Below, in pieces: positions 1 through 13,220 of a stretch of 13,220 nucleotides of DNA. Made by a program: the position numbers and the translations under genes. Below the pieces are notes generated by a model, which saw nothing but the letters and a program-made list of their open reading frames with translations, made no database searches and was not told the origin of the DNA. Every line of letters begins with the position of its first letter. The stretch's first letter is position 1. Source of the DNA: a virus; IMG/VR virus record IMGVR_UViG_3300045988_070639, positions 1 to 13,220 of that record. One strand, written 5' to 3'.

Positions 1-119
1 AAAGTGTATCACTTGATTTTCGCGGACATTTGTTTACCCCACACGGATATTCTTTCTGTCTCTTGTGCGTGGACAGTGTTCATATGACATGGGCAATAGG
101 TATGATATATTTACGTTAT

Positions 120-137
120 ATGTTTCACGTGAAACAT
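120..137. repeat. 18-bp perfect palindrome ATGTTTCACGTGAAACAT inside ITR-L; candidate dimeric protein-binding site
   Basis: Read directly: ATGTTTCAC|GTGAAACAT is its own reverse complement. A120 pairs with T137; the symmetry breaks at 119/138. A second copy lies at 13084-13101. Confidence 0.9.
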
Positions 138-337
138 CACATAGTTAGTCAAGCCTAACACGTCCGGCGTAGTGTCCACGGCTCATGCACAAAACAGGGC
201 ATTGTTTTCGAACATTTGACAGTTTTTGACGAACAGAACCGCCGGGTGTAATTATAGCCCCGGCAAAAATCGTTGTGTAGGGCCGTCCAGGGCCTCACAG
301 AGGTATTGGCATATTGCACAAAACAGAGGGCGAATAA

Positions 338-357
338 TTGGGTAATTCTTGGGTAAT
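338..357 (+). promoter_or_regulatory. Tandem direct repeat TTGGGTAAT x2 with 11-bp phasing, just upstream of the ITR promoter -35; candidate operator or activator site
   Basis: TTGGGTAAT occurs at 338-346 and 349-357. The second copy ends 9 nt before the -35 hexamer at 366-371. Confidence 0.5.
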
Positions 358-365
358 ATTCCAAC

Positions 366-393
366 TTGAACTTTCCGGAAAGTGTGGTATAAT
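366..393 (+). promoter_or_regulatory. Inward-facing sigma-70/sigma-A-type promoter in ITR-L (extended -10)
   Basis: TTGAAC (366-371), a 16-nt spacer, TG at 385-386, and TATAAT (388-393). It is followed by a purine-rich leader and the first + strand gene. Confidence 0.65.
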
Positions 394-449
394 ATAATCA
401 CAAAGGGAAAGGAAGTTCCGATGAAATAATGAAAGGACGGTAATTAAAA

Positions 450-668
450 ATGACGTACGGCGAATTTTTTAAGGCTTGCGAAGATGGGAAAATTGTGGCG
501 TATGATAAGAAAAGTGTACGGGGCTACGTGTCCCGCCGCTTGAAAGACAGCGACCCCTTAACAATGGGCGTTGCCGGTGGTTGTAGAGCCGGTGAAAAAT
601 ATGTGTTGCTCCCCCGTTGGGACAGCACAAGTTATTGCTACCGGGTATACTTTAGGGAGGTTCTGTGA
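450..668 (+). CDS. Hypothetical early protein (72 aa)
   Basis: This is the first ORF downstream of the ITR promoter and leader. Its stop is 2 nt before the next start, fitting the tight gene packing. No recognisable motif. Confidence 0.6.
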   Translation: MTYGEFFKACEDGKIVAYDKKSVRGYVSRRLKDSDPLTMGVAGGCRAGEKYVLLPRWDSTSYCYRVYFREVL

Positions 669-669
669 A

Positions 670-984
670 ATGAATCTATTGTTGGAGACTCTCGACAGCC
701 TACATTGCAATGGGAAAAATCCTAGTGATGTCGAATGGGTAGGGCGTAGAAGTACTAGTGCGGTATGCAGTTGGGATGAGTTTGAAAAACAGGCTAGATA
801 TATCGAATATGATAATGGTTATGGCATTCCTGAGGTACCGGAGGATTTGGTCATAGTTGGTGCCAATTGGTGGTTGGAGCGCTATGAATATAACGGGTCA
901 GAGTGGTGGGAGTATAAAGCACTCCCGAAGAAGTGGGATAAATATACAACTGAGTTAGGGTTAAAATATATTAGGAGGTGGTAA
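670..984 (+). CDS. Hypothetical early protein (104 aa), Trp-rich (..GANWWLERYEYNGSEWWEY..)
   Basis: An in-frame ATG at 670 is preceded by AGGGAGG (654-660). The longer 571 start would overlap the upstream gene by about 100 nt and has no SD. Confidence 0.7.
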   Translation: MNLLLETLDSLHCNGKNPSDVEWVGRRSTSAVCSWDEFEKQARYIEYDNGYGIPEVPEDLVIVGANWWLERYEYNGSEWWEYKALPKKWDKYTTELGLKYIRRW

Positions 985-986
985 CA

Positions 987-1349
987 ATGAGTAAAATTTA
1001 TACAGACGGATGGCATTTGGTCAAGGGCCACAATGACGCAATCTTAGTAAAAGATGGCAAGTTTGCGGCGGCAATCATTCGGGGCGTACATTGCGCCCCT
1101 ATTGCCGTGGACAAATTAACCGGTAAATATATCCCGTATGCTCCTACGGCATATTACGGGGAGGTATATACTACCACTTGGGCAACGGTCAAAGAGATAG
1201 ATCTCTGTTCTTATATCCGTAAACTGCCGTGGAAAATCCGGGACCGTATCGTCCCAAATTGTAAAACGTGCCAACGGTATGTCAATACCTGCGCCGGAAT
1301 GTACGGTTACATTACAGACGAGATTGCAGAAGTATGTGAGGGGCGATGA
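987..1349 (+). CDS. Hypothetical early protein (120 aa) with C-terminal Cys cluster (CKTC..C..C), possibly metal-binding
   Basis: ATG at 987 lies 8 nt after AGGAGG (973-978). The CxxC-x6-C-x15-C pattern was read from the translation. Function unknown. Confidence 0.7.
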   Translation: MSKIYTDGWHLVKGHNDAILVKDGKFAAAIIRGVHCAPIAVDKLTGKYIPYAPTAYYGEVYTTTWATVKEIDLCSYIRKLPWKIRDRIVPNCKTCQRYVNTCAGMYGYITDEIAEVCEGR

Positions 1350-1350
1350 A

Positions 1351-1509
1351 GTGAAAGTTGTAAATAGATGTAACCGGATTTTGTCCATGCCGGACAGCCT
1401 CACCAAGATGTTAAAGGTGTGGAACTTTGTTGGGGAGTGTCTACCGTATGGGAATTGGTGGACCCTTGCAATGCGAGAGTTTAACCGGCTCTACAATTTG
1501 GGGTATTGA
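1351..1509 (+). CDS. Hypothetical small protein (52 aa, GTG start)
   Basis: GTG at 1351 lies 7 nt after GAGGGG (1338-1343) and 2 nt after the upstream stop. This matches the 2-3 nt inter-gene spacing of its neighbours. The start is uncertain, since the ORF track begins at 1279. Confidence 0.4.
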   Translation: MKVVNRCNRILSMPDSLTKMLKVWNFVGECLPYGNWWTLAMREFNRLYNLGY

Positions 1510-1510
1510 A

Positions 1511-2191
1511 ATGGCAAGACGAAAGCAAACAAAATGGTTAAAACCGGAGGGGAGCCGCTACCGGCTCCCGGACTATTATTATGACCCGACAAAAGTCTAT
1601 GACTGGGCGGGGGATCCTGAGGACGTCCGCAGTGCGAAGGACGAGTATATAAGACTCCGCAAAACCGCTATGCAACGGCTCAGGAGCATTAAAAAGGCTG
1701 GCTTTGCATGGACAGACGGCTATAAAACGTTTGATGAATATCTTCGTCCGGCTAGCAAGTTGACCACCTTCGCAGACCTTGCCGTGGGCTTGCAGAATTT
1801 GGTGGAATTTTTCGAAACGCCACAAAAAACTACTATAACAGGCATTAGGGAAAATATAAATAAGCATATTAAAGCATTTCAGGCGAGGGGTATTGACTTT
1901 ATCAGCACGAACGAAGATTTTCATTTATTCACAGAATTTTTACAATTACGAATACAGATGGGGCTAGCAGAAATGTATGACAGCGAACAGATTATTGATC
2001 TAGTTAAAGACATGAAGGATCTGAACATTGACTCAGAAACGATAAAGGCGAATTTTGCAGAATTTCTAAAGTCCTCCGCCGGTGGCACGTTGCGGAAGGA
2101 ATACAGGGAGGCGGCGAACGATGGAGTTGAAAAGTATAGCCGCCGAAAGCGCAATCCCGTACCTGCAAGCGGCGAAACCTCTGGAAAGTAA
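1511..2191 (+). CDS. Candidate terminal protein (TP) for protein-primed replication (226 aa)
   Basis: The gene sits immediately upstream of, and overlapping, the protein-primed polB gene, as phi29 gene 3 does with gene 2. It has a basic N-terminus, MARRKQTKW (phi29 TP starts MARSPRIRI, from memory). The segment AKDEYIRLRKTAMQRLRSIKKAGF (nt 1634-1705) resembles phi29 TP DKAEYARLVKNTKAKIARTKKKYG. ATG at 1511 lies 2 nt after the previous stop. Confidence 0.6.
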   Translation: MARRKQTKWLKPEGSRYRLPDYYYDPTKVYDWAGDPEDVRSAKDEYIRLRKTAMQRLRSIKKAGFAWTDGYKTFDEYLRPASKLTTFADLAVGLQNLVEFFETPQKTTITGIRENINKHIKAFQARGIDFISTNEDFHLFTEFLQLRIQMGLAEMYDSEQIIDLVKDMKDLNIDSETIKANFAEFLKSSAGGTLRKEYREAANDGVEKYSRRKRNPVPASGETSGK

Positions 2192-4220
2192 GGGTGGAAG
2201 AAGAAAACAAAGTGCAAGAAATGACATAGTTACACTAGACCAAATCGCCGCTTTTGACATTGAGACCACTCGGCTAAAGCCGGAAGATTTTCCCGAATTA
2301 TCAGCCCCGGAGAAAATCCGGGGCGAATGGGTAGAAACCCGCCGCAACGAACAGTCTATCATGTATATCTGGACCTTATGTCTCCATGAAAAGTGCATGA
2401 TAATCGGCAGAACATGGGACGAATTTACAGCCATGATTGACGGTTGGAACGAATATCTTGTGCAAAATGATTACCGTCTTGTGATATGGGTTCATAATCT
2501 GTCATACGAATTTCAGTTTCTGTCCGGAATCCACAGATTTTCCAGGGAAGATGTTATGGCGGTAAAGTCCCGGAAAGTCCTTGCGTGTACATGGGGTAAC
2601 ATTGAATTTAGATGTTCATATCTTCATTCCAATATGAATTTGGACACGTTCACGAACAAAATGCACGCAGAACACACAAAATTATCCGGAAAAGAGTTTG
2701 ATTATACAAAAATCCGTTTCCCGTGGACAGAAATGACACAAAACGAACTTGCATATTGTACAAACGATACTCAGGGACTATGCGAAGCCTTGGCAAATGA
2801 AATGCAAGCGGACGGCGACACATTGGATACAATTCCCCGCACGTCAACCGGATATGTACGGCGGGACGTGCGAAATGCAATCCGAAGCAACAAAGAGTTG
2901 GTTTATAAAATTCGTGCGATCTTTCCCGATATGGACGTATATACCTATTTGCGGGAGGCTTTTAGGGGCGGTAACACCCACGCTAATCGTCACTATGCCG
3001 GAAAAGTGTTACACAATGTAGTATCGGCGGACCGGTCCAGCAGTTATCCGGATGTGCAGTGCAATAACTTGTTTCCAATGGGCGAGTTCAAGAGGCTGGG
3101 TCGGTCCACCGTGGAAAGACTTCTGTCCATGCATGACAGAGGAACCGCCACGCTTGCACGGATTGCTATAGCAAACTGTCACTTGCGGCATATATCGGAC
3201 GGATGCCCCTATATCCCCCGGGACAAATGCCGCCAAATTGTGAATGGGGTCTATGATAACGGGCGAGTTATAGCGGCGGATTATCTTGAAATAACAGTGA
3301 CGGATATTGATCTACAGATTATCGTTGACCACTACAACGGCACATATATAGTTATCGGCGGTTTTTACTCTACTTATGGCAAGTTGCCGCCGGAAATGGT
3401 GGGGGTTTTGTGTGACCTTTATCGCAAAAAGACCGAATTAAAAAACGTAGGAGGACAGGAATTGATATATGCAAAAAGTAAAGCAAAGTTGAATAGCGTG
3501 TATGGTATGACAGCCCAAAACCCCGCAAAGCCTGAGGTCTATTTTGATGGCGAATGGGGGGAAGATGCTCTAAATATTGGGGAAGCCCTGGCAGATGCTC
3601 AGCGCAATGCCTTTTTGTCATATGCGTGGGGCGTGTGGACAACTGCGTGGGCAAGATACCACTTGCAAAGCGCTATTGATTTGGTCGGGACTAGATTTGT
3701 GTATTGTGATACCGATTCTGTCAAATATCTGGAAACAAATGTTCCCCCCGACTGGACATCGTACAACAATGACCGTATAGCGGCAAGCAAACAGTCCGGG
3801 GCGTGGGCGATTGACCCGTCAGGGGAAGCCCACTACATGGGCGTATTTGAACCGGATGGAAAATACCCCGCTTTTGCAACTCTAGGGGCGAAAAAGTACG
3901 CATATTCGGACGAAAATGGGAAAACACACGTCACAATAGCAGGAGTGAGCAAAAAAGAGGGCGGTCCCGAACTGGATGCCGGGGACGAGTACGGAAAGGG
4001 GCTGGACCGATTTGTAAACACAAATCCGGGGTTTCTTTTTCGAAAAGCTGGCGGGGCCGAACTGATGTACAATGACCACCCGGCTATCACGTCTTTAACG
4101 GTTGACGGTCATGTATTGCCGATAACCGCTAACGTGGTTATTAGAGATAGTACGTATCAGCTTGGCATTACCGCAGAATATAACAAAATTTTACAGGAAA
4201 TTACAAAAGAAAAACATTGA
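2121..4220 (+). CDS. Family-B DNA polymerase, protein-primed type (phi29-like, DNA_pol_B_2 / PF03175-like), 699 aa
   Basis: Motifs read from the translation:
- ExoI FDIETT (2253-2270)
- ExoII HNLSYEFQF (2493-2519)
- ExoIII YCTND (2754-2768)
- motif A DRSSSYP (3030-3050)
- motif B KLNSVYG (3486-3506)
- motif C YCDTDS (3702-3719)
- KxY KKY (3891-3899)
The start is set at ATG 2121, 9 nt after AGGGAGG (2105-2111). Confidence 0.95.
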   Translation: MELKSIAAESAIPYLQAAKPLESKGGRRKQSARNDIVTLDQIAAFDIETTRLKPEDFPELSAPEKIRGEWVETRRNEQSIMYIWTLCLHEKCMIIGRTWDEFTAMIDGWNEYLVQNDYRLVIWVHNLSYEFQFLSGIHRFSREDVMAVKSRKVLACTWGNIEFRCSYLHSNMNLDTFTNKMHAEHTKLSGKEFDYTKIRFPWTEMTQNELAYCTNDTQGLCEALANEMQADGDTLDTIPRTSTGYVRRDVRNAIRSNKELVYKIRAIFPDMDVYTYLREAFRGGNTHANRHYAGKVLHNVVSADRSSSYPDVQCNNLFPMGEFKRLGRSTVERLLSMHDRGTATLARIAIANCHLRHISDGCPYIPRDKCRQIVNGVYDNGRVIAADYLEITVTDIDLQIIVDHYNGTYIVIGGFYSTYGKLPPEMVGVLCDLYRKKTELKNVGGQELIYAKSKAKLNSVYGMTAQNPAKPEVYFDGEWGEDALNIGEALADAQRNAFLSYAWGVWTTAWARYHLQSAIDLVGTRFVYCDTDSVKYLETNVPPDWTSYNNDRIAASKQSGAWAIDPSGEAHYMGVFEPDGKYPAFATLGAKKYAYSDENGKTHVTIAGVSKKEGGPELDAGDEYGKGLDRFVNTNPGFLFRKAGGAELMYNDHPAITSLTVDGHVLPITANVVIRDSTYQLGITAEYNKILQEITKEKH

Positions 4221-4245
4221 CAAATTGAAAAGGCTCTGATATAAT
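4217..4245 (+). promoter_or_regulatory. Consensus sigma-A-type promoter with extended -10
   Basis: TTGACA (4217-4222), a 17-nt spacer, TG (4237-4238), and TATAAT (4240-4245). The -35 hexamer contains the polymerase TGA stop (4218-4220). A 5-bp hairpin, GTTGG-AAAA-CCAAC (4253-4266), lies at the predicted transcript 5' end. Confidence 0.75.
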
Positions 4246-6144: not shown

Positions 6145-6816
6145 ATGCCTAGTATATACATTAGTCCGTCTGACCAAGATAGGAATTACGGATGCGGAAC
6201 CTATGGTAGCGAGATGGAGCAGATGGAGTTGCTGGCGGCAGAAGTCGGCAAGGCTCTGGACCGGTGCGGCGTAAAACACAAAATCTGTTATCATACGGAG
6301 ATGGGCATTGACGGCAGACCCGCCGACTGCGATAAGCTAGGCTATGATTATTATCTGGCCTTACATAGCAACGCAGGTGGGGCGGGAGTTGCCCGTGGAT
6401 GTGTCGCATACTACTATGAGGCCGGGAAGAACCTGGCGAACACGCTTGCATATGCCCTTAGAAAAATCGGTCAGCCGTCTGACCGGTGGGCAAGTGTCCA
6501 GCAGAATAAGACATTTTACGAGTGCCGCATGATGGCGGCAACGTCCGTCCTTTTTGAGGTCGATTTTCACGACACACCCGCCGGGGCCGCTTTTATCATG
6601 GCCCGCCGGGTGGATATTGCGGAAGCTATTGCCGAAAGCATTTGTGCAGAGTTTGGCGTGGACTATGTTCCCCCCAAACAGGAAACGATCAAGGATGTTC
6701 TTTATTGTGTGCAGATGGGCGCATTTAAGAACAAAGCGAACGCCAAAAAGCTGGCGGCGAAAATGAAAAAGGCCGGTTATGACGTTTATATTACCGAAAA
6801 GGAGCGAAATGTATGA
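6145..6816 (+). CDS. Endolysin: N-acetylmuramoyl-L-alanine amidase (Amidase_3 / PF01520-like) with C-terminal SPOR domain (PF05036-like), 223 aa
   Basis: The motifs YISPSDQ..N, GSEMEQ, LALHSNAG and LFEVDFHD match the Amidase_3-like pattern. The C-terminus YCVQMGAFKNKANAKKLAAKMKKAGYDVYI (about 6697-6795) is a typical SPOR signature. SD AAGGAGGG (6130-6137). Confidence 0.85.
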   Translation: MPSIYISPSDQDRNYGCGTYGSEMEQMELLAAEVGKALDRCGVKHKICYHTEMGIDGRPADCDKLGYDYYLALHSNAGGAGVARGCVAYYYEAGKNLANTLAYALRKIGQPSDRWASVQQNKTFYECRMMAATSVLFEVDFHDTPAGAAFIMARRVDIAEAIAESICAEFGVDYVPPKQETIKDVLYCVQMGAFKNKANAKKLAAKMKKAGYDVYITEKERNV

Positions 6817-7136
6817 AAATCGAACAGATTACCGCCCTGAAAGATGCTGGTTTCACCGCTGAACAGATTGTAGCGTTGGCCCCCATTTTGACGGAGGAAC
6901 CCCCGAAGCCGGAACCCCCGAAGCCGGAACCCCCGAAGCCGGAACCCCCGAAGCCGGAGCCGGAGAAGTCCCCCATGGAGGAAATGATGGTTGCCATGCA
7001 TAAACAATTTGAAGATATGTTGAAAGCGGTACAGGGGGCCATGATTAACGGCTCCCGGCAGGCTGAAACCGAAATGACGGCGGCAGACGTTGCCGCTAGT
7101 ATCCTGGACCCCGGCAGAAACCGGGGCAAGAAGTGA
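6813..7136 (+). CDS. Candidate scaffolding protein (107 aa) with (EPPKP)x4 linker
   Basis: A small, acidic protein that looks helical, immediately upstream of the capsid gene, the position of phi29 gp7. ATGA start/stop overlap with the endolysin gene. SD AAAGGAG. Function assigned by synteny only. Confidence 0.55.
   Translation: MKIEQITALKDAGFTAEQIVALAPILTEEPPKPEPPKPEPPKPEPPKPEPEKSPMEEMMVAMHKQFEDMLKAVQGAMINGSRQAETEMTAADVAASILDPGRNRGKK
6896..6958 (+). repeat. Perfect 15-bp tandem repeat, 4.2 copies (GAACCCCCGAAGCCG), encoding EPPKP x4
   Basis: Read directly: units in codon register lie at 6897-6911, 6912-6926, 6927-6941 and 6942-6956, with no substitutions. A degenerate GAGCCGGAGAAG follows. 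Confidence 0.95.
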
Positions 7137-12469: not shown

Positions 12470-12505
12470 TAATTGCCCCCGGCCAGAAACCGGGGGCTAT
12501 TATTA
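12467..12505. terminator. Bidirectional intrinsic terminator between convergent genes
   Basis: GCCCCCGG (12475-12482) pairs with CCGGGGGC (12490-12497) around a 7-nt loop. The stem is extended by TAATAAT / ATTATTA arms, which contain the stop codons of both convergent genes. Confidence 0.75.
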
Positions 12506-12769
12506 TGCATGATATTCAGCGTCAGGCGTGTACTTCCACACCGTCCGCCCCTTAAGATTTTCAATAGACGTTCCGTCCCGGATACAATCGCCAGCTGTAT
12601 CATAATACCAGCCTCGGCACTGCTCGAAAAATTTGCTCCACGTTTTAAAACTGATAAAGCCCATATTAGTCATTCGATAAAAACTATCCCATATTTTATC
12701 AAATTCTTCACGACTTCTAGAATAATTCACCAACGTTTCTTTCATATTCGTTACGTTTAACGCTTTCAT
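12503..12769 (-). CDS. Hypothetical right-end protein (88 aa); the only leftward gene
   Basis: The ATG (complement of 12767-12769) lies 8 nt outside the ITR-R boundary, downstream of the ITR-R copy of the promoter and leader. The stop lies in the bidirectional terminator. No recognisable motif. Confidence 0.65.
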   Translation of the reverse strand: MKALNVTNMKETLVNYSRSREEFDKIWDSFYRMTNMGFISFKTWSKFFEQCRGWYYDTAGDCIRDGTSIENLKGRTVWKYTPDAEYHA

Positions 12770-12827
12770 TGTTTTTGTTACCGTCCTTTCATTATTTCAT
12801 CGGGACTTCCTTTCCCTTTGTGATTAT

Positions 12828-12855
12828 ATTATACCACACTTTCCGGAAAGTTCAA
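12828..12855 (-). promoter_or_regulatory. Inward-facing promoter in ITR-R (mirror copy of 366-393)
   Basis: This is the reverse complement of the ITR-L promoter and is identical to it. It drives the - strand gene 12769..12503. Confidence 0.65.
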
Positions 12856-13083
12856 GTTGGAATATTACCCAAGAATTACCCAATTATTCGCCCTCTGTTT
12901 TGTGCAATATGCCAATACCTCTGTGAGGCCCTGGACGGCCCTACACAACGATTTTTGCCGGGGCTATAATTACACCCGGCGGTTCTGTTCGTCAAAAACT
13001 GTCAAATGTTCGAAAACAATGCCCTGTTTTGTGCATGAGCCGTGGACACTACGCCGGACGTGTTAGGCTTGACTAACTATGTG

Positions 13084-13101
13084 ATGTTTCACGTGAAACA
13101 T
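13084..13101. repeat. ITR-R copy of the 18-bp palindrome ATGTTTCACGTGAAACAT
   Basis: Mirror position of 120-137; read directly. Confidence 0.9.
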
Positions 13102-13220
13102 ATAACGTAAATATATCATACCTATTGCCCATGTCATATGAACACTGTCCACGCACAAGAGACAGAAAGAATATCCGTGTGGGGTAAACAAATGTCCGCG
13201 AAAATCAAGTGATACACTTT

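Follow-up and report, generated by a model that had tools for sequence, protein, structure and literature searches.

The stretch of DNA analysed here over its full 13,220 nt (the window) is, judging by its sequence, a complete linear podovirus genome, phi29-like and of human-gut origin. We consider it highly probable that this genome is of the protein-primed kind, that its inverted terminal repeats (ITRs) are composites of a replication origin, regulatory blocks and a promoter, and that the two copies are homogenised. Direct reading of the ends and an ungapped comparison show that positions 1-443 (plus strand, non-coding) are the reverse complement of 12778-13220 (minus strand), with a single mismatch. 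This position, 27 nt inside the inner boundary, is T at 417 and, on the minus strand, C at 12804. Chance cannot account for a match of 443 nt with only one difference. Both 5′ ends read AAAGTGTATCAC, beginning AAAGTG, and the two copies make up 886 of the 13,220 nt (6.7%). The length, the 417/12804 mismatch, the AAAGTG ends and the 6.7% share had all been claimed in the original prediction, and the comparison of the ends bears them out. A repeat search lengthens the arms to 1-449 and 12772-13220 at 99% identity, once a second mismatch, at 444, and an indel of 1 nt are allowed. The inner limit lies 6 nt before the ATG at 450 on the left and 8 nt before the ATG at 12769 on the right. The ITRs are the only long non-coding stretches of the genome; the small ORFs within them are not conserved and are unlikely to be genes, since relatives show 1-2-nt indels there.

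A diverged relative bears on whether the contig stops where the DNA stops. Genome L006, whose ITR is just 82% identical to that of the window, terminates at the same AAAGTGTATC, which argues that AAAGTG marks the true end of the DNA. The repeat marks the window as a complete genome and its tips as the probable ends, which aids annotation of a widespread, uncultivated lineage of very small gut phages.

ORF and domain searches describe a compact genome with nearly all genes on the plus strand and a G+C content that ranges along it from 41% to 55%. The early genes span 450-4220, from a 72-aa gene of unknown function (450-668, +), whose orthologues occupy the equivalent place in relatives, to the polymerase gene, which comes last. 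This gene (2082-4220, +) encodes a family-B DNA polymerase of the protein-primed type (Pfam DNA_pol_B_2, E = 1.3e-13, 51 bits against a cut-off of 25.8), and its sole PDB relative is the phi29 DNA polymerase (1XHX/2EX3, E = 1.4e-15). Downstream lie genes for a gp16-type packaging ATPase, a holin, an amidase with a SPOR domain and a phi29-type major capsid protein, and, further along, genes for a CHAP-domain protein, a gp10 connector and tail proteins (Pfam, PHROGs). Pfam Phi29_MCP, Phage_connector and Podovirus_Gp16 each score above their cut-offs, such that a phi29-type morphogenesis module is present. Moreover, the ATPase matches the phi29 gp16 structure 7JQQ, and the gp16-type ATPase of asccphi28 is also among its PDB matches. 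The polymerase, ATPase, capsid protein and connector together back the earlier assignment to the phi29-like, protein-primed kind, and protein priming is the most likely mode of replication to be read from this gene set.

The right end carries a single gene of 88 aa and unknown function (12503-12769, −), which reads inward. Between it and the converging last plus-strand gene is an 8-bp all-GC hairpin (12475-12497), likely a bidirectional terminator that would also end transcription of the right-end gene. Several further features of the genome were observed. A perfect consensus promoter, TTGACA-17-TATAAT with a TG extension, overlaps the end of the polymerase gene (4217-4245); the packaging, structural and lysis genes are probably expressed from it. 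A 107-aa gene (6813-7136) contains, at 6896-6958, 4.2 copies of a perfect 15-nt tandem repeat, GGAACCCCCGAAGCC, which encode PEPPK units; since the otherwise identical assembly L102 has two units fewer, its copy number either varies or is collapsed by assemblers. In the close relative L093 the early genes include a 294-aa gene with a PAPS_reduct domain (398-1282) that the window lacks.

An ORF directly upstream of the polymerase gene (1511-2191, +; 226 aa) is a candidate for the terminal protein. In about 100 relatives, Amedibacillus phage AD70P2 among them, a member of the same protein family directly precedes the polymerase. The N-terminus is basic, as in the terminal proteins of phi29 and Cp-1, and Y156 and S158 are at least 90% conserved, in a shallow alignment whose database homologues are all at least 69% identical. 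The protein has no Pfam or PHROG match, its hhalign comparisons with the terminal proteins of phi29, Cp-1 and asccphi28 gave probabilities below 1%, and its AlphaFold2 model (pLDDT 44) is unusable. Profile matches in the PDB to designed PPR proteins were rejected as repeat artefacts, with no qualifying stretch. The homologues have a longer Lys/Arg-rich tail (237-280 aa in all), whilst the window copy ends in ...SGETSGK and overlaps the polymerase ORF.

Variable stretches alternate with highly conserved ones along the ITR: among relatives with a genome-wide identity of about 85%, blocks 1-30, 121-150 and 181-300 reach 90-98%. At the tip, a terminal AAA reiteration (1-3, +, mirrored at 13218-13220) gives a template 3′ end of TTT, is identical at the L006 terminus, and is the presumed site of terminal-protein-primed initiation with sliding-back. 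A conserved sub-terminal box, GGACATTTGTTTACCCCACACGGATAT, follows at 24-50 (+, mirrored at 13171-13197). The same box lies 18-26 nt from the contig ends in L006, L009, L025, L027 and L107-L110 and is never internal, and the outermost ~20 nt outside it vary between lineages. We regard the box as a candidate origin or auxiliary-factor site. The pentamer GGACA is about twofold commoner in the window ITR than in the rest of the genome, a figure that derives from two to three copies, and weight can be given only to the conserved sites of the pentamer within the terminal box.

Further in, a perfect 16-bp palindrome, TGTTTCACGTGAAACA, occupies 121-136 (mirrored at 13085-13100) and is found in the ITR only. 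The block that contains it (121-150) is the most conserved of the ITR, with 98% identity to the window across L006, L008 and L092. The TGTT-N8-AACA operator family was searched for elsewhere in the genome and not found. A TTTCGAACAT box is located at 206-215 (+, mirrored at 13006-13015), where 205-215 reads TTTTCGAACAT; the motif recurs in the ITRs of distant relatives, often inside 53-54-bp tandem units. These units were observed in a clade whose polymerases are ~45% identical to that of the window, two to three per ITR (L042 1-166, L072 177-300, L049 1-110). Each bears TTTTCGAACAT and GTGTCCGTGT, whilst the window has one TTTTCGAACAT only, and the units look like iterons or operators.

The inner part of the repeat resembles an expression signal. 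An inward sigma-70-type promoter, TTGAAC-16-TATAAT with a TG extension, is located at 366-393 (+, mirrored at 12855-12828), and the sole invariant columns of alignment A1, which spans 354-448, fall in its -10 region and in the 5′UTR. A leader of ~50 nt separates the promoter from a ribosome-binding region common to both ends, GAAAGGACGG, at the inner ITR edge (431-440, +, mirrored at 12790-12781). Promoter and ribosome-binding site are predicted from their motifs to be active. The shared leader also contains, at 404-429, a second Shine-Dalgarno-like stretch, AAAGGGAAAGGAAG, followed by ATG AAA TAA, and the mismatch at 417 falls inside it. In L005, L006 and L095 a real gene of 63 aa starts at the corresponding ATG, between the promoter and the first gene, so the leader of the window may keep the remnant of a deleted gene.

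Whole-window megablast against GenBank phages returned no match, and relatives were found through proteins. Those in GenBank are distant (polymerase at most 51% identical) and comprise unannotated human-faecal contigs and the Amedibacillus phages AD70P2/P3 (Guelinviridae). Closer relatives, with polymerases 87-93% identical, came from IMG/VR and ENA, the closest being L005-L008. Independently assembled terminal repeats measured 378-383 bp in L006, 403 bp in L008 and 302 bp in L072 (the latter two contigs being truncated at their tips), 211-222 bp in L009 and 126 bp in L010, and shorter repeats were found in L025 (74 bp), L110 (38 bp) and L027 (28 bp). The 443 bp of the window is the longest ITR among the relatives sampled. 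A comparison of the ITR with relatives had been proposed with the original prediction; it gave repeats of 28 to 403 bp, concerted identity of the copies, and in L006 the same terminus.

Within a genome, the two ITR copies are 99.8% (window), 99.7% (L006) and 100% (L008) identical. Between genomes, ITRs are 82-91% identical, about equal to the rest of the genome. This pattern indicates that the ITR copies evolve in concert, because independent drift since the genomes diverged would give tens of differences, which an assembler would resolve. The active homogenisation envisaged in the original prediction is backed by this contrast in three genomes. Its alternative, a very recent duplication, is unlikely given that terminal repeats occur across the clade.

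That alternative can be put more strictly: the near-identity would go back to a single, very recent event in which one end was duplicated at the other, and homogenisation would not be ongoing. We judge this quite improbable. Three genomes whose ITRs are 9-18% apart each carry internally identical copies, which on such a reading would call for an independent recent duplication in each lineage, in effect recurrent homogenisation. Moreover, the T/C difference at 417 is also present in two other assemblies, one of which (L102) is a slightly different genome variant. In favour of the duplication, the inner boundary varies between close relatives: the right copy of L006 departs upstream of the -35 element, whilst in the window and L008 the repeat reaches up to or into the start codon. 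Moreover, a paralogue of the first, 72-aa gene opens the right end of L007, and L092 has such paralogues at both ends (36-39% identity). We take these observations to mean that end-to-end copying occurs episodically. It looks, from these boundaries, like occasional copying of one end onto the other past the old boundary, followed by decay from the inside; a trace of this decay may be the T/C difference at 417, common to all three assemblies. The 72-aa family, of unknown function, has the motif GY.SR...AGG.R.G..Y.LLPR.D.T.YC, and its diverged paralogues sit just inside the ITR promoter.

The length of the repeat could instead be due to a functional RNA encoded in its conserved interior (about 121-300) and hence held in duplicate, such as a divergent prohead RNA (pRNA) for the gp16 packaging motor. 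Such an RNA would suit the ITRs as the sole long non-coding stretches of the genome, and the conservation of blocks 121-150 and 181-300 (90-98%, against about 85% genome-wide). An outward promoter-like site is found at 279-251, the phi29 pRNA is transcribed outward from promoter A1 near the left end, and the asccphi28 ITR has an annotated outward promoter and terminator. However, a pRNA gene, described so far for Bacillus relatives of phi29, was not detected by an Rfam search over the whole window at E <= 10. Folding gave z-scores of -1.8 for 100-365 (+) and -0.35 for 1-250 (−), and RNAalifold on four relatives returned a covariation term of +0.69 with one compensatory pair only. Moreover, the interior aligns neither with that of L009 nor with that of the L072 clade, the latter being made up of the 53-54-bp DNA iterons. 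We therefore find an RNA of this kind very unlikely. Outside the repeat, folding of 1350-1510 (+) gave a z-score of 0.0, with no structured-RNA signal.

The evidence for physical identity of the two copies depends on how short reads assemble. Independent contigs that encode identical proteins come from ERR911973 / PRJEB9576, a metagenome of the human gut. Two other assemblies, L102 and the pair L105 + L103, show both junctions and the T/C difference again, with each allele joined to its own unique flank. L105 and L103 are 100% identical to the window, and L102 differs from it by a 3-nt indel and two units of the 15-nt tandem repeat only. These same contigs break off at window positions 290 (k = 127) and 298 (k = 119), exactly 417 minus k. 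Since two assemblies reproduce the T/C and the breaks fall exactly k outward of it, the difference at 417/12804 is real. The same breaks indicate that the copies do not differ further at ~290-443, and that short-read graphs merge the outer parts of both copies. Identity of the copies is thus independently verified for about 290-443 only, and 1-289 is partly identical by assembly construction. The earlier claim of near-identity over 443 bp accordingly stands for about 290-443, where independent assemblies support it, but is not borne out by a short-read assembly for 1-289, which short reads do not phase.

Alternatively, the true ITR might be shorter or less identical than it appears, the assembler having put one consensus on both ends; it could then be as short as ~154 bp, or differ within 1-289. 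The positions of the two breaks (290 and 298), each one k-mer outward of the single SNP, agree with this, as does L018, where the same Nextera adapter is found at 1-47 and at the mirrored right end. These identical adapters illustrate the collapse of both ends into one path, such that the outermost sequence of L018 derives from that path. Adapters also remain on other public IMG/VR contigs (Nextera on L069 1-38, TruSeq on L062 1-13), and the adapter-genome junctions in L018, L069 and L062 mark read starts near the physical termini. However, divergence at the level seen between genomes (9-18%) would be split into separate assembler paths, and L006, L008 and L072 independently yield ITRs of 302-403 bp. 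In the short-ITR relatives L110, L027 and L025 the ends were assembled via different flanks and yet have a common terminal sequence and box, which argues that the two-ended identity is physical and not merely repeat collapse. A protein-primed genome, moreover, requires equivalent origins at both ends. A shorter or less identical repeat is therefore, in our view, a slim prospect. More generally, 'perfect ITRs' in metagenomic genomes are partly made by the assembler, as short reads cannot phase the outer repeat.

It is exceedingly unlikely that the element is a self-synthesising transposon, a hairpin-ended replicon or a linear plasmid. Terminal inverted repeats are found together with protein-primed polymerases in casposons, polintons and linear plasmids too (PMC5499653), but the window has a full phi29-type virion and lysis gene set, no integrase or protelomerase by Pfam and no protelomerase by PHROGs in any ORF, a repeat at both ends and not the one-site telomere-resolution palindrome of an N15-like hairpin telomere, and no contig that runs past the termini into host DNA, and a scan of bacterial genomes with capsid-protein peptide patterns, sensitive to close relatives only, gave no copy (nor did it identify a host).

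We compared the window with known phages, whose ITR lengths were measured directly in GenBank records. The original prediction set the 443 bp against the 6-8 bp of the phi29 group and the 236 bp of Cp-1; the length is not exceptional for the group, given asccphi28 (577 bp, 6.2%), Mycoplasma phage P1 (350 bp, 6.0%) and Cp-1 (236 bp). All three have annotated promoters within the ITR or at its inner edge. The window shares this long-ITR design, of at least 200 bp, near-perfect and with promoters reading into the terminal genes, in having 443 bp, a mirrored TTGAAC-16-TATAAT and a common ribosome-binding site. A 443-bp repeat that unites origin and early promoter is thus a known design. Long ITRs have also been described for staphylococcal and related phages of the Rountreeviridae (PMC9045211).

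Lactococcus phage asccphi28 (Salasmaviridae) resembles the window in being linear with perfect ITRs (6.2% of 18.8 kb) that carry annotated promoters, in having a gp16-type ATPase and in its terminal protein gene directly upstream of a family-B polymerase, the layout proposed here for the candidate. It differs in having no nucleotide similarity, a GACTTAG and not an AAAGTG terminus, an outward promoter and terminator annotated in the ITR, a larger genome and structural genes on the opposite strand. Mycoplasma phage P1 (Delislevirus; 11.7 kb) likewise has perfect ITRs with one inward promoter per end driving the first gene, but its polymerase comes first after the ITR, its terminus is GAGAGTAG and its host is unrelated. 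The terminus of the Streptococcus phage Cp-1 (Cepunavirus), AAAGC, also starts with AAA, and promoter elements are annotated in its ITR. Its weaker repeat runs on to 344 bp and resembles the eroding inner boundary of the window's clade. Cp-1 is unlike the window in its shorter ITR, its 19.3-kb genome and a terminal protein without sequence similarity to the candidate. Bacillus phage phi29 (Salasvirus) shares the AAAGT terminus (AAAGTA; PMC11476376), the polymerase family, the capsid protein, the connector and the gp16 ATPase, but has a 6-bp ITR, with the early promoters and the pRNA gene outside it in unique sequence. The window also resembles uncultivated human-gut phi29-like phages of 12-14 kb (IMG/VR 3300045988; MT835998, MT836263; AD70P2/P3), which have the same gene order, the sub-terminal box and the candidate terminal protein family upstream of the polymerase, and differ in their right-end gene. 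A survey has reported over 2000 phi29-like genomes, many of them human-gut ones of 12-15 kb (PMC11476376).

On the reading that we favour, of a protein-primed genome with composite and homogenised ITRs, the outermost ~50 bp would be the replication origin, made up of the AAA reiteration and the conserved sub-terminal box. By analogy with phi29, Nf and Cp-1, where a heterodimer of terminal protein and polymerase employs sliding-back (PMC5175343, PMC3480470), such a heterodimer would initiate opposite an internal T of the 3′-TTT and then slide back. Sliding-back on terminal reiterations has been described, and on 3′-TTT it is established for Cp-1 (PMC5175343). The AAA terminus fits an origin of this type because polymerase, ATPase, capsid protein and connector are all phi29-type. 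In some lineages, contigs that extend about as far beyond the box begin with GGAGCC, GTGGAA or CGATAG and not with AAA, and so either the homopolymer reiteration is not clade-wide or these contigs are short of a few bases. We infer a covalently attached terminal protein, initiation with dAMP and a mechanism of homogenisation. The ITR interior would carry the conserved regulatory blocks and the inner ~80 bp a strong inward promoter, 5′UTR and ribosome-binding site. The left copy of this promoter would drive the early operon of first gene, terminal protein and polymerase, and the right copy the one small gene at 12503-12769. Copying linked to replication, in which one end serves as model for the other, would keep the copies alike. 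Either the ends of displaced single strands would anneal into a panhandle or the template would be switched, and the inner boundary of the copied tract would move over evolutionary time. For adenovirus and PRD1, panhandles have been put forward as a route to initiation and as a way to restore end homology, but direct evidence is still lacking, as it is for whatever keeps terminal repeats identical in protein-primed replicons (PMC11886824).

What is of modest interest, then, is the range of ITR length in collinear relatives, the box at a fixed distance from the end and the signs of a moving boundary that would carry terminal genes from end to end. It is possible, if rather doubtful, that the repeat is a homogenised expression cassette whose moving inner boundary transplants terminal genes, that its interior encodes a two-copy non-coding RNA (a divergent pRNA), or both. 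If true, copying of the cassette would give genomes such as L092 a 72-aa paralogue at each end and bring new genes under the common early promoter, and either reading, cassette or RNA, would explain why phages of identical architecture have ITRs of 28-443 bp. Close genomes with ITRs over this range, together with the T/C difference near the boundary, form a natural series that could map the reach of end-to-end correction.
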